This document shows positions 6,716 to 16,957 of a stretch of 64,000 nt of DNA, piece after piece. Below the pieces are notes generated by a model, which searched no databases, was not told the DNA's origin, and was given only the letters and a program-made list of their open reading frames with translations. Origin of the DNA: Candidatus Pyrohabitans jungbluthii. GTDB taxonomy: Archaea > Hydrothermarchaeota > Hydrothermarchaeia > Hydrothermarchaeales > BMS3B. Each line of letters begins with the position of its first letter. The first letter of the stretch is position 1. Where the stretch lies: contig MTMD02000008.1 of NCBI GenBank assembly GCA_002010065.2, forward strand, positions 288,001 through 352,000. The letters run 5' to 3'. A program made the translations under genes and the position numbers.

Positions 6716-7348
6716 ATGCCTTCGGAGGCTAAGTGGAAGTCCCTTGCTCTGGCTTTTGCAGTCCTCTTTCTACTATCTGCAATATGGGGGTATGCAAGAG
6801 TACCCTCTGGCTCTATGGTGGTGCCGGAGGAGGAGTACACCATCCTGAAAAGCAGCATCTCAGCGCTTCAGAAGGAGAATGATAAGCTTAAAATCGAGCT
6901 GGCGCAGATCAAGAAGGAGCTTGAGCAGGTAAGAAAAGAAAAGGGGAAGACCGTTGGGGATTTTACATATACGGGAGAAGAGTTGTGCACCTCTGATGGC
7001 AAGCCCGTGGTCTATTTCTTCGGCACCAGCTGGTGCCCTCACTGCAGATGGGAGAAGCCCATAATAAAGCAGGTGGCGAGCGAGTTTTCCAACAGCATCG
7101 ACTTCAGGTTCTATGAGTTGGACCTGCAGAGCGCCCCCGAGGAGGACATGAAGGTGTTCCGCAAATTCAGTCCGAACGGAGCGGTGCCCACCCTTGTGTT
7201 TGGGTGCAGCTACTACCGCGTGGGAAGCGGGGAGAACTTTGGAGAGGAGGCTGAGGCAGAGGCGCTTAGAGCACTGCTCTGCAAGATAACCCAGAGTAAG
7301 GCAGAGGTGTGCAAGAAGTACGCGGGCATAATCGCGGGAATACCGTAA
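6716..7348 (+). CDS. Membrane-anchored thioredoxin-fold protein with coiled-coil linker
   Basis: N-terminal TM helix, a heptad segment, WCPHC active site, cis-Pro motif AVPTL and additional Cys residues. Confidence 0.82.
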   Translation: MPSEAKWKSLALAFAVLFLLSAIWGYARVPSGSMVVPEEEYTILKSSISALQKENDKLKIELAQIKKELEQVRKEKGKTVGDFTYTGEELCTSDGKPVVYFFGTSWCPHCRWEKPIIKQVASEFSNSIDFRFYELDLQSAPEEDMKVFRKFSPNGAVPTLVFGCSYYRVGSGENFGEEAEAEALRALLCKITQSKAEVCKKYAGIIAGIP

Positions 7349-7830: not shown

Positions 7831-7904
7831 GGGCCCGTAGTCTAGCTGGTTATGACGTCGCCTTGACACGGCGGAGGTCCGGAGTTCGAATCTCCGCGGG
7901 CCCA
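7831..7904 (+). tRNA. tRNA-Val(GAC)
   Basis: GGGCCCG acceptor stem, anticodon arm TCGCC-TTGACAC-GGCGG, T arm CGGAG-TTCGAAT-CTCCG, discriminator A. No intron and no encoded CCA. Confidence 0.95.
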
Positions 7905-7950
7905 CTTTTAACAAAATTTCATGGCACCTACACAACCTCTCTTTTTAGAA

Positions 7951-8081: not shown

Positions 8082-8651
8082 CTATTCCATCTGTTTCATG
8101 GAATAGACCATCCTGTGGAAAGCGGTAAAGAACCCCATGAGTGCAAGAAAGACTAATAGGTAGTAAACCTGCCCTAAGAGGAGCCCTAATATTATTGCCA
8201 GTATCCTGAAATCCCGTGTGGCGAGACCTACTCTGCACTCTGCTCCAACAGCCTCTGCCCTGGAGCGGGTATAGCTCACAAGGAAAGTCCCCACAATCGC
8301 AAAGACACCCGGGAACCAGTAGTCAGCAGGGGCTAAGGCGATTAGAGCGATTATTAAGCCTGCGTCCACAAATCTATCCAGCACGCTGTCAAGATATGCT
8401 CCCCTCCTAGTTGTCTGTCCTTTTAGCCTTGCCAGGTCACCATCGGCGCAATCCAGAATCTGAGAAATAAAAAGCACAACTACGCCTGCGATTACCTCTC
8501 TGATTGCTATGAGATATGCGGCAAAAAATCCCACGAAGGCTGCAAACCAGGTAACTGCATTTGGAGAGACGCCCGTATGCTTCAGCAATTTTGCTATAGG
8601 GATGGAAAATCTCCTGTAAACGTAGTTTGTCAGCGGATACTTAAATTCCAT
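8082..8651 (-). CDS. CDP-alcohol phosphatidyltransferase family protein (DIPP synthase-like or archaetidyl-alcohol synthase)
   Basis: DCADGDLARLKGQTTRRGAYLDSVLDRFVD signature. The real start is ATG 8651 (MEFKYP); the longer ORF runs through the tRNA. Confidence 0.88.
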   Translation of the reverse strand: MEFKYPLTNYVYRRFSIPIAKLLKHTGVSPNAVTWFAAFVGFFAAYLIAIREVIAGVVVLFISQILDCADGDLARLKGQTTRRGAYLDSVLDRFVDAGLIIALIALAPADYWFPGVFAIVGTFLVSYTRSRAEAVGAECRVGLATRDFRILAIILGLLLGQVYYLLVFLALMGFFTAFHRMVYSMKQME

Positions 8652-8722
8652 CCCTAAGCACCACTTAATATACTCCCTATTTTTACAGATGAACGCAACA
8701 CCCACCCAATATAAGCAAGTTA

Positions 8723-8794
8723 TGGGCCCGGAGGGATTCGAACCCACGACCGCCCGGTTATGAGCCGGGCGCTCTACCGCTAAGCTACGGGCCC
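8723..8794 (-). tRNA. tRNA-Ile2(CAT), agmatidine type
   Basis: Reverse complement GGGCCCGTAGCTTAGCGGTAGAGCGCCCGGCTCATAACCGGGCGGTCGTGGGTTCGAATCCCTCCGGGCCCA. CAT anticodon with G1-C72/G2-C71 and an Ile-type acceptor stem, not the A1-U72 of initiator Met. Confidence 0.85.
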
Positions 8795-8916
8795 GCAGGT
8801 GTAAGATTGCATTGAAAATATTTATCATTTTCTCTATACTAAGGAACGACAAAAAAGGATTATGTAAGGGTGTGATATTTATACCTGGGATGGCAGAATA
8901 TACTTGGGGAGACGTA

Positions 8917-9843
8917 ATGAACTACGAGCTGGTTAAGGAGACGGCAAGCAAAATTGCACGCATGGAGATTCGGGGCGCGGCGAAGATTGCCCAGAGCGCG
9001 GCTCAGGCTCTTCGCGATTTCGCCCTTAATTACCAGGGAGAGAGCGCGGCAAAGTTCCTCTCAGAACTTGAGAAGGCTGGCACCATCCTCAAGGAGGCGA
9101 GGCCGACTGCGGTAAGCCTTCCCAACGCAGTGAACTATGTGCTCCTTGCTGCTAGAGGAAAGGGCGAGGTAGAGGAGATTAGAAGGGCGGTGGTTAACGC
9201 AGCAGAGGACTTCATTGCCCGCTCAAAGAAAGCGCTCGGCAGAATAGGAGAGATAGGAGCCAGACGTATAAAGAGCGGCGACATTATACTTACCCACTGC
9301 AACTCCCAGGCGGCGCTTTCTGTGATAACTACCGCCTTTCGTCAAGGCAAAGATATAGAGGTGATTGCCACCGAGTCGAGACCACGCTACCAGGGGCATA
9401 TTACAGCGAGGCAGCTCGCCGAGCAGGGCATACCGGTGACGCTTATCGTCGACTCTGCTGTGCGCACATTTATGAAAGAGGTGGATAAAGTAATAGTGGG
9501 CGCGGACAGCATAGCCGCGAACGGGGCGGTGATTAATAAAATTGGCACCTCGCAGATAGCGCTCGCTGCCCACGAGGCGAGGGTGGTCTTCATGGTGGCT
9601 GCCGAAACATACAAGTTCCATCCCAAGACGCTGATAGGCGCGCTGGTGGAGATTGAGGAGCGCCCCAGCGAGGAGGTTGCCAACCCAGAGGAATTCCCTG
9701 GGGTAAAGATTCGAAACCCCGCCTTCGACGTCACCCCGCCCGAGTACATAGATTTGATAATCACTGAGAAGGGCGTAATTCCACCACAGGCGGCGATAAT
9801 GGTGTTAAAGGAGGAGTTCGGGCTGGAGCTTGAGAAGGAATAG
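8917..9843 (+). CDS. e2b2: Ribose-1,5-bisphosphate isomerase (eIF-2B family)
   Basis: [38 protein letters not shown] and NPAFDVTP motifs. Start ATG 8917. Confidence 0.88.
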
Positions 9844-11516: not shown

Positions 11517-13421
11517 CTACTTCCTCCTGCGCAACGCGTCTATCTTCTCGCCCACGTAGGCTTCGTCTCTGCCCGTCTTCATCGGCTTAACCTGCGACCT
11601 TCTCTTCAGAAGCCTTTTTAACCTCTCTACCTCTATTCTGAACAGCTCCACCTCCTCGCATACCTCCGCATAGCGACGCTCCAGCTCACTTTTCGCCACC
11701 TTTTCTTTCGAAAGCTCTGCCTTGAGGTCTTTAAGCTTTTTCTCTGCGTCTATCCTCAGTCTCCTTTCATTGATTAGTTCCTTTTTAATATTCTCCTCGA
11801 GCGTTAGCTTTTCTGCAAGAACCTCTTCGATTCTAGCTTTTAGCGAATATATAACCTCTTTTTTATCCTTCAATTCCTTCTCAAGTCTTTCATTTTCCTT
11901 CATCACCTGCTTTAGCCTGCTCAACTCCTCCTCTGTGGCATCCTTTTCCTTCAGAAGTTTTTCAATTTGACTTTTTAATCCGTTGATCTCCCCATCTTTT
12001 TCTTTTAGCTTTGCATTTATGGCAGCAATAGTTTTTTCAAGCTTAGCTTTTTCTGATTCTTCTTCTTTCAATACACCCTCAATTTTGCTTTTTTCTATTT
12101 CCGCAGCCTTTCTCAAATCTTTTTCTCTCTTTATCTCCTCTTTCAATCTGTGCAGTTCCTCTGCAAGTGCTGATTTTTCTTTTTCTAGCTTTTCAAGCTT
12201 TTTATGCATTTTTTTAGACTCTATTTTTAAATTCTCTATTTCTGATTTGAGGGCACTTTTTTCCTCCTCAAGAAGCACAAGCTCTTTCTCAAGCTTCTCA
12301 GCGCTTTTTATTTTCTTCTCTGCCTCTTTAAGCCGCTTTTCAGCCCGCTCAAGCTCTGCAGTGCGCTTTCTGAGCTCCTCCCTGAGTTTCCGCTTTTCAG
12401 CGTCGTCCTCCTCCGGAATGTAGTCTCTGAAGTCTTCCTCCAGAGCAAGAAATAGCTTTTTTCTCGCCTCTGTGGCAGAGTTTAGTATGCTGAGGTAATC
12501 TTCGCGCAGAGATAGTATTCTGCTGTAGCTGTTGAATCTTTCCCCCAGTGCCTCAGCGCGCTTTCGAAGTTCTTCAAGGCTCTTCTCAAGCTCTCTTTCT
12601 TTTTCTACAGCCTCTTTAAGCTCCTCCCTGAGACCTTCGCAGGTGCTGGATGCGCGCTCAACTTTGCGCTTCTCTTCCTCGAGCTTTGCAAGCTTTCTCC
12701 TCTCCTCCTCAAGGAGTGGAGGAATCTTCCTCGCCCCCTCGTCTGCAAGCTCTTTTATTGCATGCCGTAAGGGATCTTTATTCAACACCAGCCCAGTGAT
12801 TCTTATTCTCTCATGGTAGCCAGGGTCCTTAATAAGGTGCTCAAAAAGCACTTCCAGAGGCAGCTCCTCTCCAGCATCGCTGTAAACTCTGCAACCGCGA
12901 AGCAGACGACGAGCTTCTATCAAGAAGCTGTCCCTTATCTCAGCCAGCCTTTCATCTGTCTGGGCTCTTATCTCAGCTACCTTCTTCTCGTACGCATCTC
13001 TGAGCTTCTCTGCCTTATCGCATGCCCTTTGCACCTGCAGCTCAAGCTCCTGGCGATGCCCCTTATGAATTCCCAGCTTCCTCTCCTTTAACCTTATCTC
13101 CTCGGCGAGTTCCAGGTAGAGACGCAGCTTCTCTACGTCGTCTTCAACCGCCTGAGAGAACTTTTCAATCGCAGAGCCAACCTTCTGCATCGCCCCGTCG
13201 AAAAAGTCACGCCTCTCTGGAACAAGACGCATGGCAGAGGTGCAAACAAGGTCAAGATAGCGCTTAGTCTCTGCCGCAAGAACAGAGAGTTCAGCAAGAG
13301 AACTTTCAAGGCTTTCGCTGGCGGAGCGATGCTCTTTCAGAGCTTCCACGCTTTCGACGAGTTTGAACCAGCTTTCTGGAAGGCTCCTAAACTCCTCAGG
13401 GGGTAAAAATTCTGTGCCCAT
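11517..13421 (-). CDS. Uncharacterised long coiled-coil protein A (634 aa), paralog of the neighbour
   Basis: E/K/L/R-rich heptads throughout, with no Walker A/B and no TM segment. Aligns with 13437-15005 over about the first 350 aa. Confidence 0.85.
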   Translation of the reverse strand: MGTEFLPPEEFRSLPESWFKLVESVEALKEHRSASESLESSLAELSVLAAETKRYLDLVCTSAMRLVPERRDFFDGAMQKVGSAIEKFSQAVEDDVEKLRLYLELAEEIRLKERKLGIHKGHRQELELQVQRACDKAEKLRDAYEKKVAEIRAQTDERLAEIRDSFLIEARRLLRGCRVYSDAGEELPLEVLFEHLIKDPGYHERIRITGLVLNKDPLRHAIKELADEGARKIPPLLEEERRKLAKLEEEKRKVERASSTCEGLREELKEAVEKERELEKSLEELRKRAEALGERFNSYSRILSLREDYLSILNSATEARKKLFLALEEDFRDYIPEEDDAEKRKLREELRKRTAELERAEKRLKEAEKKIKSAEKLEKELVLLEEEKSALKSEIENLKIESKKMHKKLEKLEKEKSALAEELHRLKEEIKREKDLRKAAEIEKSKIEGVLKEEESEKAKLEKTIAAINAKLKEKDGEINGLKSQIEKLLKEKDATEEELSRLKQVMKENERLEKELKDKKEVIYSLKARIEEVLAEKLTLEENIKKELINERRLRIDAEKKLKDLKAELSKEKVAKSELERRYAEVCEEVELFRIEVERLKRLLKRRSQVKPMKTGRDEAYVGEKIDALRRRK

Positions 13422-13436
13422 AATAACAGCAATGCC

Positions 13437-15005
13437 TTAGCTCCTGATTTTCTCAAGTATATCGAGCAGAGACCTCTCAACCTCAGCCCTGAGGCGGGCA
13501 ATTTCCTCCTCAAGTGCTTTCACTCTGCTCTTTTCCTCTTCAAGCTCTTTCTCGAGTTTTGCCTTCTCATCCTCAAGCTTCTCAGAGGCATTTGTAAACT
13601 TCTCCAGCTCTGCCCTGAGATTCTCAACTTCCCCAGCTAGCCTCAGATTCTCTTCCTTAAGAATTTCAGCTTTCTCCGACTCCCTCCGGCGGAATTCCTC
13701 ATACTCCTTCTCCAGCTCTGAAAGCTTCCTTTCCAGCTCTGAGTTCTTATCCTTTAGACTCGCTATGATGCTATTCCTATCCTCAAGTTCTCTGGCGTAC
13801 CTGCTCACCTTCTCCTTCAGCGCCTCCCTCTCCTCTTTCAAGCTTTCCAGCTGTGAAGCGAGTTTTTGCATCTCCTTCTCAAGCTCTCCTATTCTGGAGA
13901 GCAGGCGCCTCTTCTCAGGGTCGTGCTCTATCTCGAGGTCTCCGAATGTTGCTGCGATGTACTCAAGAAAACCTCTTATCTCAGGGTCAATAGAGTCGAA
14001 GACAGAGGTGAACTCCTCTTTTATTGACAGAATCTCATTGTAATCATCAAAATTTCTGTTTATCCTCTCCTCAAACTGTGCTATCTTATCCTCAAGCTCA
14101 TTTCTGTAATTTTCGAGTTCCTCTCTGCGCTTTTCCACATCTCTGCACGCTTTCTCCAAAGAGTCCAGGTCAGCGAACTCCCTGCTGAGGTTGCGCGCAT
14201 TCTCCATCTCCACCTCTTTTATTCGCCTAGCCTCTTCGATGAGCTCCTGGGCTATGTACCTGAGCACCTCCAGCCTCGCCTCCTCCCCAAGCCCCTCGCG
14301 CTTTAGCCTTATTCCCAGGAAGCTCCGCGAAGGCCTAGCCTCGCGAAGGTATACCTTCTCAATCGCGCTAGGGTCGCGAAGCATAGCCTTAAAGAGCTGC
14401 TCTGGCGTTGTGGGCTCACCCGCATAGTAAAGCTCGTAGTCCCCCACAATGCCAGTAGCCTTTTCCTCAAACTTCGCCTGGAGATCGTACAACCCCTTTT
14501 CCACCCGCGCCTTAATCTTCTCCTTCGCAAGCTTAAGCTCGCGCTGCCTCTCAAAGAACCTCGTGCACAGTGTCGCGACGCGAGCATCCACTTCTTTAAA
14601 TTCTTTATTTATCTTCCCTATTTCCTCCCTCAGCGCAGAAACTTCTCGCTTAATTGCAATGAACTTCTCAAGCTTCTCAAGCTCCTCCTTAACCTTAGAT
14701 GCCAGATCCTTCAAACCCTGCTCTATGCCCGCGGTTCTGTGGTCCACCTCGGCGCGAATCTCCGGCATGTGCCTCTTCGCTGAGCGCGCAAGCACATCAA
14801 GCTCAGTTAACAGATGTTCGAGATTTTTATTTATCTCAGCCAAAGTGCGTCTGAACGCAGGCTGCTCACCTGAGCTGAACTCTGCGATAGCGTCTATTTG
14901 CCTAGCTACCGCGTACCACTCCTCCTTAAAATCAGCACACCGCCTCTCAAGCTCAGCTGGTGATAATAACGCGTCGGTCACTCTCTCCCTCACATCCTTT
15001 TTCAA
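13437..15005 (-). CDS. Uncharacterised long coiled-coil protein B (522 aa)
   Basis: Heptad-rich with no ATPase motifs; TTG start; central non-coiled insert YYAGEPTTPEQLFKAMLRDP...SRSFLGIRLK. Confidence 0.85.
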   Translation of the reverse strand: MKKDVRERVTDALLSPAELERRCADFKEEWYAVARQIDAIAEFSSGEQPAFRRTLAEINKNLEHLLTELDVLARSAKRHMPEIRAEVDHRTAGIEQGLKDLASKVKEELEKLEKFIAIKREVSALREEIGKINKEFKEVDARVATLCTRFFERQRELKLAKEKIKARVEKGLYDLQAKFEEKATGIVGDYELYYAGEPTTPEQLFKAMLRDPSAIEKVYLREARPSRSFLGIRLKREGLGEEARLEVLRYIAQELIEEARRIKEVEMENARNLSREFADLDSLEKACRDVEKRREELENYRNELEDKIAQFEERINRNFDDYNEILSIKEEFTSVFDSIDPEIRGFLEYIAATFGDLEIEHDPEKRRLLSRIGELEKEMQKLASQLESLKEEREALKEKVSRYARELEDRNSIIASLKDKNSELERKLSELEKEYEEFRRRESEKAEILKEENLRLAGEVENLRAELEKFTNASEKLEDEKAKLEKELEEEKSRVKALEEEIARLRAEVERSLLDILEKIRS

Positions 15006-15061
15006 TTAGGTGGTAAGCAGAAATATATATACGTTTAGGTAGAGTAAAATAGGGTGGGATA

Positions 15062-16276
15062 ATGGGAGAAGTTATCGCAAGCTACAGAATAGACGCAGAT
15101 GACATAAAAGTAGCTGCCCGCGCAATAGCAATGGAGCAGAGCACGGGCACGTGGACGAAGGTTAGCACCGCCACGCAGGAGATTCACGAGAAGTACGGCG
15201 CCAAGGTTGTGGAGGTGGATGAGGAGGCGAAGGTTGCAAAGATCGCATTTCCCGTGGAGGATTTCAGCCTGGAGATAGGCGGCATACCCAACATCCTGAG
15301 TATAATCGCAGGCAACCTCTTCGGCTTGCGGGAAGTTCGCGCTGTTAAGCTTCTCGATGTCGAATTTCCCCGCGAGATTGTAACCTTTTTCCAGGGACCC
15401 AACTTCGGCATAGAAGGTGTGAGGAAGCTTGTGGGAACCTCGCAAACGAAGCGCCCGCACGTGGGCACAATTATAAAGCCCAAGATAGGCCTGCCCCCTG
15501 AGCGCTTTGCAGAAGTTGCATATGAGGCTGCGATGGGCGGCTTGGACTTTATCAAGGACGATGAAACCCTGGCGAATCAGGATTTCTGCCCTCTTGAGGA
15601 TAGGGTATCCCGCACCATGGAGGCGCTGGACAGGGCAAAGGAGGAGACGGGCAAAACCTGCCTCTATGCCGTCAACGTCACCAGCGAAGACATAGTTGAG
15701 ACTGCACAGCTTGCCGTGGACAATGGCGCCAATTGTTTGATGATCGACGTCCTTACATGCGGCTTTCCCGGGCTGAGGGCGCTTAACAGAAACTTCAAGC
15801 TTCCCATACATGTGCACCGCACAATGCATGGAGCAATAACGCGAATGAAGAACCACGGCATCGCTATGCTGGTGTTCGCCAAGCTTGTACGCTTAGCGGG
15901 TGGAGACCAGCTCCATGTGGGCTGCGCCATGGGTAAAATGGAGAGTGAGAACTTCCAGGCGAACTACAATGCGCTTAGAAGCGAGTGGTACGGCTTAAAG
16001 CCGGTGTTCCCAGTCTGCTCCGGCGGCGTTCACCCCGGCTACGTGGAGGGCAATGTCAGAGCTGGAGGCACGGATATAGTGATTCAGGCAGGAGGCGGCG
16101 TGCACGGGCATCCTCTGGGAACGAGAGCGGGAGCTAAAGCGATGATGCAGGCGGTGGAGGCTGTGATGAAGGGCATTCCTTTAGAGGAATACGCCAAGGA
16201 GCATGAGGAGCTGAGGCTTGCGCTGGAGAAGTGGGGTACGCAGCAAATCACGAGGTACTACAGTGAGGAAATGTAG
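15062..16276 (+). CDS. rbcL: RuBisCO large subunit, archaeal form III-type
   Basis: All catalytic motifs present: EQSTGTWT, AGNLFG, GTIIKPKIG, GGLDFIKDDE (carbamylated Lys), HVHRTMHG, LHVG..GKME (loop-6 Lys), SGG, GGGVHGHP. Confidence 0.92.
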   Translation: MGEVIASYRIDADDIKVAARAIAMEQSTGTWTKVSTATQEIHEKYGAKVVEVDEEAKVAKIAFPVEDFSLEIGGIPNILSIIAGNLFGLREVRAVKLLDVEFPREIVTFFQGPNFGIEGVRKLVGTSQTKRPHVGTIIKPKIGLPPERFAEVAYEAAMGGLDFIKDDETLANQDFCPLEDRVSRTMEALDRAKEETGKTCLYAVNVTSEDIVETAQLAVDNGANCLMIDVLTCGFPGLRALNRNFKLPIHVHRTMHGAITRMKNHGIAMLVFAKLVRLAGGDQLHVGCAMGKMESENFQANYNALRSEWYGLKPVFPVCSGGVHPGYVEGNVRAGGTDIVIQAGGGVHGHPLGTRAGAKAMMQAVEAVMKGIPLEEYAKEHEELRLALEKWGTQQITRYYSEEM

Positions 16277-16957
16277 ATGGAGTTTCTTATTAAACTCATT
16301 CTCGCCCTGCTGGTGCTCTTCTACGCCTCTCTGCTCGACTGGCGGTATCGCGAGATAAACGATGCCTCCTGGTTAGCGCTGGTTTTCATGGGCATTGTGT
16401 TCATAGCTGTAGACGTTGCAAGAACTGGAGTTACAACCCCGCTCCTCTACTTTCTGATTTCTGTAGGTGTAACCTCTGCGCTCATGCTTGCGTTCTCCTA
16501 TTTTAACCTTCTCGGAGGCGGCGATGCGAAGATATTCATCGGCATAGCATCGCTATTCCCCTACTACCACCGCGAGGTAACGACGGTTTTTCCAATCTTC
16601 GCCCTCTCCGTCTTTGCAAACGCGATAACACTTTCGCTCGCTTTGCCGGTGTACTTCTTCTTGAGGAATCTTCCTCATCTTAAGCGGGTGAGGAGCGCTA
16701 AGGAGTTTTACGCCCTATTTCTGGGCTACAAAAAGAATGCCTCTGAGATCAAGCCCTATGAGGCGGTTTATGGCAACGGAAAGAGCTTCACCTTCCTTCT
16801 CCGCACAGATGCTGAGCTGGGAAAGGCTGAAGGAGAAGGTGAAGTGTGGGTAACGCCGGCGGTGCCATTTGTAATCCCGATAACTATTAGTGTGCTGCTA
16901 AGCGCGCTGTACGGTGATATAATAAGTGCGATTATACTATTTCTGAGAGGAAGCTAA
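16277..16957 (+). CDS. A24 family prepilin/prearchaellin peptidase (FlaK/PibD-like)
   Basis: YASLLDWRYREI (first Asp), GGGDAK (GxGD) and C-terminal VWVTPAVPFVIPI. Confidence 0.88.
   Translation: MEFLIKLILALLVLFYASLLDWRYREINDASWLALVFMGIVFIAVDVARTGVTTPLLYFLISVGVTSALMLAFSYFNLLGGGDAKIFIGIASLFPYYHREVTTVFPIFALSVFANAITLSLALPVYFFLRNLPHLKRVRSAKEFYALFLGYKKNASEIKPYEAVYGNGKSFTFLLRTDAELGKAEGEGEVWVTPAVPFVIPITISVLLSALYGDIISAIILFLRGS

Follow-up and report, generated by a model that had tools for sequence, protein, structure and literature searches.

Two adjacent genes in the genome of the deep-subsurface archaeon Candidatus Pyrohabitans jungbluthii raise a question about the proteins they encode: what are these paired, coiled-coil products that carry no recognisable ATPase motif, and do they belong to any known family? 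The genes lie in a stretch of 64,000 nucleotides (hereafter the window; contig MTMD02000008.1, positions 288,001 to 352,000, assembly GCA_002010065.2), which comes from a 99.95% complete archaeal genome (G000). Gene A, the long type (11517..13421, minus strand), encodes 634 amino acids from an ATG and ends in a C-terminal peptide; gene B, the short type (13437..15005, minus strand), encodes 522 amino acids from a TTG at 15005 and is without that peptide. A is located 15 nucleotides downstream of B on the same strand. Both open reading frames (ORFs) were confirmed at the positions and lengths given in an earlier interpretation made from the letters of the DNA alone (the sequence-only reading). 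In the case of B, however, translation probably begins at GTG 14993, four codons later, yielding 518 amino acids; this start is the likelier one because the closest relative (P0008) begins at B's fifth codon in the alignment. Our analyses support the view that A and B represent an undescribed family of paralogous, ATPase-less hairpin coiled-coil proteins.

Paralogy and searches for known relatives

As glutamate, lysine, arginine and leucine make up over half of both A and B, the N-terminal modules of the two proteins were scored apart against shuffled sequences. This revealed a local alignment score of 252, compared with 62.9 +/- 10.1 for 300 shuffles (maximum 100). With a z of 18.7, the N-terminal regions of about 355 residues align far above composition, confirming the paralogy that had been proposed, while the tails of A and B alone reached a z of only 4.6. 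A direct BLASTP comparison of A with B gave 26% identity and an E-value of 2e-17, with 15% gaps across 522 columns, and a search of the genome with the A module recovered B at 2.9e-14. The five motif pairs quoted in the sequence-only reading were all found, as were both tip sequences; its description of the alignment as nearly gap-free is slightly generous, the apex of A being about 16 residues shorter than that of B.

The same genome encodes a third paralogue, C, a protein of 1102 amino acids (contig C1:62859-66167; locus L034:8860-12168, minus strand) that ends in ...YIEQKTSALRRV and combines the same module (profile E-value 1.9e-41) with a much longer tail. C-type proteins were found in six genomes.

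No characterised match was found in Pfam, NCBIfam, PADLOC, the PDB sequences, Foldseek or the ESM Atlas. Pfam returned only coiled-coil noise for A (2 matches), for B (the best 25 of 61 matches) and for 23 N-terminal modules; within this scope we saw no match to MCPsignal (PF00015) and no Snf7/ESCRT-III core. The commonest Pfam family over the 23 modules was ATG17_like, with 4 members and a best E-value of 1.1e-6. DUF1664 did pass its cut-off on B (37.2 versus 34.6 bits), with a score summed over three stretches of the tail (best 364-427); it had no match to A and matched 1 of the 23 modules at an E-value of 7.9e-5, and we read the similarity as one that probably reflects coiled coil. The intermediate filament model (Filament, PF00038) scored 20.2 bits on B against a cut-off of 40, had no match to A, and matched one of the 23 modules at an E-value of 7.7e-4, and Rod_CreS reached 21.2 bits against a cut-off of 100 in one relative. 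The NCBIfam models for ASRP, SMC and Rad50 gave 17-54 bits, compared with cut-offs of 300-1087. Within this group, the ASRP model (NF045487), which covers a head with Walker B and signature motif, matched in coil positions and stayed far below its cut-off of 300 bits, reaching 31.7 with A and 46.7 with B. PADLOC yielded no score above 21.7 bits.

Searches by structure gave a similar picture. Against the PDB, Foldseek returned no row at an E-value of 1e-3 or below for either the A or the B model. The nearest shapes were Rad50/SMC arms, the dynein stalk, chemoreceptor hairpins, F-BAR domains and ClyA-family toxins, all with template modelling (TM) scores of 0.53 or less. A Foldseek search of BFVD returned a single row at an E-value of 8.6e-4, with a TM score of 0.21, the rest being SMC/Rad50-like coils, and the best score in the ESM Atlas was 0.79, under the 0.9 level. 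The best matches in a profile search of the PDB sequences were designed antiparallel coils and the Habc domain of syntaxin-1A (E-values of 6.6e-6 to 3e-4, 23-28 bits); we read these as generic helical similarity and rejected them as homologues. The name "chromosome segregation ATPase", which one source attaches to relatives of A and B, was likewise rejected, since the precomputed Pfam domain behind the label is CCDC39 and the name rests on coiled-coil similarity. In the titles and abstract openings of the literature we found no description of the family, although one may still exist.

Predicted hairpin and conserved elements

AlphaFold2 models of the two proteins were used to examine their architecture. 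The confidence (pLDDT) was 87.2 for B and 92.1 for residues 1-354 of A, and the order of the elements is identical in the two models, which were built on overlapping sets of relatives. Their secondary structure agrees with the layout that had been described from sequence, in which base helices lead into an outgoing helix, an apex, returning helices and a tail. The N-terminal module of B (about residues 1-362; 13920..15005, minus strand) matches the family profile at 1.3e-118 and that of A (residues 1-354; 12360..13421, minus strand), with its helices in the same order, at 4.4e-105, A and B being themselves rows of this profile. In the B model, helices 16-42 and 49-79 are followed by a 107-residue outgoing helix (81-187). 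The knob (190-222) comes next, with two strands and two helices, all short, and then a loop modelled at low confidence (226-237). The chain returns in helices 241-276, 280-313 and 322-355 and passes through a junction, again of low confidence (357-362), into the tail helix (363-521). The module is thus predicted to form a hairpin of two helices, roughly 70-100 residues each, with a small alpha/beta knob at its tip. The tail is a single helix, and total protein length in the family ranges from about 400 to about 1150 amino acids.

Two-helix antiparallel stalks of about 10-15 nm with a small conserved turn element are likewise found in the dynein stalk, the chemoreceptor hairpin and colicin Ia. 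Here the likeness is one of shape only, with Foldseek TM scores of 0.18-0.39 (0.35-0.39 for the chemoreceptor) and no sequence relation, and A and B, unlike these proteins, are without motor, receptor or toxin domains. As the sequence-only reading had noted, there is neither a Walker A motif (pattern [AG]xxxxGK[ST]) nor a CxxC motif in A or B, and the same is true of C. Nor is a transmembrane helix indicated, the best 19-residue Kyte-Doolittle means being 0.39 for B and 0.72 for A. A prediction of the A-B complex (A 1-470 with B 1-522) gave a score of 0.01 (mark 0.32), which is uninformative either way.

In an alignment of 34 rows (B numbering), W30, E364 and L368 are invariant, and C147, L204, F205, L248, C287, E360, D362, K365 and R366 are conserved in at least 90%. 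Several of these residues fall in two elements of the module. The apex knob of B (residues 188-240; 14286..14444, minus strand) carries two strands, two helices with the LF pair, and a low-confidence basic/hydrophobic loop, RPSRSFLGIRLKRE; the knob of A (residues 174-214; 12780..12902, minus strand) has a shorter loop, ITGLVLN. In most members, the conserved LF helix leads into a loop that reads basic-G-[FL]-[FLV]-G-x-x-basic. At the boundary between module and tail helix there is a near-invariant junction motif, ExDxEKReL, in a segment that is flexible in the model. It reads EIEHDPEKRRL in B (13902..13934, minus strand), between the module and the tail helix and with low pLDDT at 357-362, and PEEDDAEKRKL in A (12384..12416, minus strand).

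The conserved cysteines form a pair, one on each side of the apex. Their codons lie on the minus strand at 14565..14567 (Cys147) and 14145..14147 (Cys287) in B and at 13020..13022 (Cys134) and 12639..12641 (Cys261) in A. They were found where the sequence-only reading had placed them, and both positions are at least 90% conserved across the 34 rows; A and B also have further cysteines. In a larger set of 85 distinct rows, both cysteines are present in 71, neither in 7 and the second only in 5, with a gap in 2 (exact columns). For the tree, the set was cut to the 76 rows that span 80% or more of the module and then, by dropping rows more than 90% identical, to 58 non-redundant ones. Among these 58, there are 49 with both, 4 with neither, 3 with the second only and 2 with the first only. 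Both cysteines are missing from both proteins of one genome (G029), from P0032 and from the P0029/P0042 lineage, and in the C type the two positions were lost independently. A coupling between the two losses could not be demonstrated, as the 58 rows offer 5 independent tree contrasts (sign test, p at least 0.625). By its 3-4 hydrophobic spacing, inspected in the sequence, C287 occupies an "a" position, while C147 immediately follows a "d" position, a pattern compatible with both cysteines pointing into the core of the hairpin. A disulfide staple formed by the conserved pair is a reasonable candidate idea.

Protein disulfide oxidoreductases (PDO) mark thermophiles with cytoplasmic disulfides, and the genome encodes one above the NCBIfam cut-off (194 versus 185 bits). 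The presence or absence of PDO was considered as an explanation for the loss of the cysteines and rejected, since G029, whose A and B are without both cysteines, still has a PDO above the cut-off. A separate gene in the window (6716-7348, plus strand) encodes a protein of 210 residues whose N terminus is a hydrophobic anchor and which also has a short stretch of coiled coil and a thioredoxin fold carrying CPHC; being membrane-anchored and DsbE-like (a weak match), it was rejected as a cytoplasmic PDO.

The third conserved element lies at the other end of the protein. A ends in a 12-residue amphipathic peptide of the form E-x-[YI]-V-x-E-K-[IL]-x-A-L-R, followed by x-basic and preceded by a linker rich in K, R and P; in the window this is DEAYVGEKIDALRRRK (11520..11567, minus strand), with a basic linker before it. 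Of the 74 family rows with 380 amino acids or more, 31 match the pattern, and the glutamate at position -3 is present in 29 of these 31; the search pattern included the K, L and R positions, and this glutamate lay outside it. Elsewhere in the G000 proteome, the same peptide is seen only in C and in one loosely similar ORF of 651 amino acids (contig C2:199446-201401, minus strand), which ends in ...LEKLAEKIAKLRAE and whose resemblance is probably due to chance.

In the tree of the 58 rows, the A type is separated with a Shimodaira-Hasegawa-like approximate likelihood ratio test (SH-aLRT) support of 100, and 18 of the 19 A-type rows have the peptide. On the other side of this split, 8 of 39 rows match the pattern; these are single-copy proteins from three lineages, C-type proteins and one B-type row, the last being a false match of the pattern. 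Two more C-type rows carry a variant of the peptide that the pattern missed. Because it is present on both sides of the best-supported split, the peptide would most simply be ancestral, kept in A and lost in B.

Distribution, gene order and linkage

To define the extent of the family, an exhaustive phmmer search was run with the B module as the single query against 1.84 billion representative sequences. It returned 42 relatives at an E-value of 1e-3 or below, 15 of them at 1e-30 or below, and the best rows span nearly the whole module of about 350 residues, with the weaker ones covering shorter stretches. All relatives that bear organism names come from Candidatus Pyrohabitans sp., Candidatus Hydrothermarchaeota archaeon or Candidatus Hydrothermarchaeales archaeon. 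A search with the module profile that was limited by word matching returned only 4 close relatives. Within the phylum, the module is present in 30 of 38 Hydrothermarchaeota genomes, including 17 of the 21 high-quality ones. As far as searched, the family appears to be restricted to the Hydrothermarchaeota.

Neighbourhood conservation had been suggested as a check. The B-then-A tandem recurs in 15 of the 30 genomes that carry the family, each with two adjacent module matches on a single contig. When 21 loci were scanned with the module profile for gene order, the short type was upstream of the long type in all ten loci with both, at a spacing of -8 to +16 nucleotides, and the peptide was on the downstream protein in all eight loci that have its end on the contig. 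B and A appear to be co-transcribed neighbours in about half of the family-bearing genomes. In at least five lineages (loci L042-L046) the family gene is present as a single copy. An ArsR-type helix-turn-helix regulator is encoded directly upstream of the single-copy gene, on the same strand, in two of these loci (L043:10227-10742 and L044:9181-9741), and a relative of this regulator lies about 5.7 kb away in L035.

A second feature of the gene neighbourhood is its association with two metabolic enzymes. In the window, B is flanked by a divergent RuBisCO-family gene (15062-16276, plus strand), which scores 423 bits with the type III model, under the cut-off of 497; a second copy, 50% identical, is found on contig C2 of the genome. 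The gene for ribose-1,5-bisphosphate (R15P) isomerase, which is above its NCBIfam cut-off (456 versus 314 bits), lies on the other side of the pair (8812-9843, plus strand). B and the RuBisCO-family gene are separated by an A/T-rich spacer of 56 nucleotides (15006..15061, no strand) that contains TATATATA and that, read by eye, may hold back-to-back promoters for the two genes. Across the phylum, 17 of the 30 family-bearing genomes place a family gene no more than 5 kb from a RuBisCO-family gene or an R15P-isomerase ortholog, and such linkage occurs in all but one of the 10 taxonomic families with the gene (9 of 10). RuBisCO is the neighbour in 8 genomes, at a distance of 57-170 nucleotides in seven and divergent in the six whose strands were read. 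An R15P-isomerase ortholog, defined as a match of at least 63% identity, is found within 5 kb in 11 genomes, gene positions being compared by hand. The other flanking genes vary by lineage and include an ArsR-type regulator, GINS, a radical SAM enzyme, a histidine kinase, SecY and MscS, among others. The linkage is not universal: G001 and G002 (98% and 96% complete) keep the B-A pair and yielded no RuBisCO or isomerase ortholog with these queries, and the family is missing from G012, G018 and G020, which encode both enzymes. From the gene positions, the linkage is specific, yet not obligate. On the far side of the RuBisCO-family gene, an archaeal A24 prepilin/preflagellin-type peptidase gene (16277-16957, plus strand) abuts the RuBisCO stop codon with zero spacer, an odd operon partner for a carbon enzyme.

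Together with the third paralogue, the junction motif and the apparently ancestral C-terminal peptide, the linkage to RuBisCO or R15P-isomerase genes is new here.

A possible scaffold, its alternatives and the wider neighbourhood

What might such proteins do? We see about an even chance that A and B belong to a non-enzymatic cytoplasmic scaffold or tether family, rather than being an enzyme or a motor. In this scheme, the tails would pair into coiled coils, making each protein an elongated dimer, and the knob loop would attach the end of the hairpin to a surface, for which an anionic membrane is the most likely first guess. The C-terminal peptide would dock on a partner, at a guess the acidic junction or the base of another subunit. 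Such docking could give rise to head-to-tail assembly, with B acting as a non-propagating or capping partner. Scaffolding by coiled coils is a known way of working, while the hairpin-knob module is without a detectable relative. Crescentin, FilP/Scy, DivIVA, PomX and HubP are coiled-coil proteins without enzymatic activity, restricted to particular lineages, which self-assemble and use short terminal peptides to recruit partners. These bacterial scaffolds resemble A and B in the proposed way of working; they offer no counterpart of the hairpin-plus-knob module, and the Pfam Filament and Rod_CreS models give no homology.

We know of no cultured representative of the Hydrothermarchaeota, and to our knowledge archaeal cell architecture is almost uncharted beyond a few model organisms. 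The family offers a scaffold candidate that is lineage-specific, concrete and expressible, and the genomic association with RuBisCO and R15P isomerase could reflect the spatial organisation of an archaeal metabolic pathway. If the proteins are plainly structural, this would still provide a useful annotation for about 40 "hypothetical protein" clusters that one source names chromosome segregation ATPases.

Several observations weigh against a role as a scaffold or tether, or against parts of it. Hydrophobic residues number only two or three in the knob loop, and acidic ones occur in the C-terminal peptide; both features are untypical of membrane-targeting helices. Four high-quality genomes among the 38 (G012, G018, G020 and G036) were found to be without the family, which is therefore not essential, and a generic scaffold role leaves the linkage to RuBisCO and R15P isomerase unexplained. 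The tails of A and B are unmatched in length within genomes (426 and 657 amino acids in L035; 690 and 570 amino acids in L040), which argues against one simple A:B parallel coiled coil. The lineages with a single copy and the unmatched tails also mean that the obligate A-B heterodimer or copolymer envisaged in the sequence-only reading is not favoured, and for the same two reasons a homomeric ancestor seems likelier.

The shape of the hairpin invites a comparison with SMC, Rad50 and the ASRPs (ClsN, Sph), whose long coiled-coil arms are likewise antiparallel and turn back at an apex, and which gave the nearest Foldseek shapes. The proteins could on this basis be chromosome organisers, descended from such arms or mimicking them without heads, whose coils bridge DNA bound by the basic loop of the knob and by A's lysine-rich linker. 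The best Rad50/SMC row has an E-value of 2.7e-3, with TM scores of 0.38/0.53 to a coil segment of P. yayanosii Smc; the weak NCBIfam matches to ASRP and SMC (31-54 bits), the K/R-rich linkers in A-type tails and the "chromosome segregation ATPase" label on relatives in one source point in the same direction. We nevertheless consider such a role unlikely. Walker A and the CxxC hook are absent, the ASRP matches (31.7 and 46.7 bits, cut-off 300) fall in coil regions, and the label goes back to coiled-coil similarity (CCDC39). The defining features of ASRPs are Walker A, at the N-terminus, Walker B and a zinc hook (PMC9389158). Unlike SMC, Rad50 and ASRP, A and B have no ATPase head, zinc hook or hinge, their apex is an alpha/beta knob, and their chain, unlike an SMC arm, runs past the base into a second, single tail helix. 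Paralogue C suggests a different role, as an organiser of the cell pole, the chemosensory array or the archaellum that works with a MinD/ParA ATPase. The gene for C is divergent to that of a HAMP/MCP chemoreceptor, beyond which come two HEAT_PBS-repeat genes, one of them with DUF2226, and the gene for an archaeal MinD that scores 336 bits (cut-off 201.75); 4 of the 6 C loci share this block. Archaeal MinD proteins position the motility and chemotaxis machinery (PMC11588486). The block is kept within one genus only, however, and is missing at L050 and L053; moreover, A and B have metabolic genes around them. Five genomes (G002, G003, G021, G022 and G023) have the family and neither Arch_fla_DE nor MCPsignal, while three with both markers (G012, G036 and G037) are without the family. 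Because of these mismatches the family does not track motility, and we regard a polar role as decidedly unlikely.

The linkage described above might instead mean that the proteins are a scaffold of the adenosine monophosphate (AMP)-salvage/RuBisCO pathway, which organises or co-localises RuBisCO and R15P isomerase, for example via the C-terminal peptide. The linkage in 17 of 30 genomes and 9 of 10 taxonomic families, with other flanks not conserved, and the isomerase's score above its NCBIfam cut-off (456 versus 314 bits) favour such a role. We think it very unlikely, given that G001 and G002 have the pair without either enzyme, that G012, G018 and G020 show the reverse, and that the related genomes are not independent, so that inherited gene order could account for part of the linkage. 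To the more specific proposal of an archaeal organiser, in which proteins encoded between or next to the genes for form-III-type RuBisCO and R15P isomerase would gather these enzymes on a coiled-coil lattice via the C-terminal peptide and/or the knob, we attach only a very small probability. The linker proteins of carboxysomes and pyrenoids would be its functional analogue, unrelated in sequence. The peptide itself permits another comparison. The MIM1 consensus is (D/E)xxLxxRLxxL(K/R), and the peptide fits its spacing at all six positions with conservative replacements: an acidic residue, three hydrophobic and two basic positions, at the extreme C-terminus and after a flexible charged linker. 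Membrane remodelling by an ESCRT-III-like logic, with the peptide as a MIM1-like recruiter of a MIT-domain ATPase, is nonetheless highly improbable. The MIT model (PF04212) had no match at an E-value of 0.01 or below in G000, control archaeal genomes being positive, and was above its cut-off in none of the 38 phylum genomes; furthermore, A and B, unlike ESCRT-III, have no ESCRT-III core, with no match to Snf7 or PspA in Pfam (for B, among the best 25 of 61). A two-component pore-forming pair of the ClyA family, comparable to YaxAB or XaxAB, would likewise consist of adjacent related genes whose products have a helical stalk and a small, strand-containing head, and Foldseek gave weak rows for YaxB, AhlB, XaxB, SmhB and NheA (E-values of 0.018-0.085, TM scores of 0.26 or less). 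These rows are not significant, and unlike such toxins A and B have no hydrophobic tongue, the top 19-residue hydropathy means being 0.39 and 0.72. Their long, cytoplasmic-type tails and basic C-terminal peptide, together with phylum-wide vertical conservation beside housekeeping genes, also fit poorly, making a pore extremely improbable.

The remaining genes next to the A/B pair in the window have housekeeping or metabolic roles. Just 1 nucleotide after A, on the same strand, begins a class I/II aminotransferase gene. Apart from it, the R15P isomerase, the RuBisCO-family protein and the A24 peptidase, the neighbours encode SRP54, a ZIP transporter, a CDP-alcohol phosphatidyltransferase, a dCMP deaminase and TrkA-type channels. 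A tRNA-Met gene (8723-8794, minus strand) falls within the 5' part of the mechanically called ORF 8082-8852, so the CDP-alcohol phosphatidyltransferase must start further in, and a tRNA-Val gene is located nearby at 7831-7905 on the plus strand.

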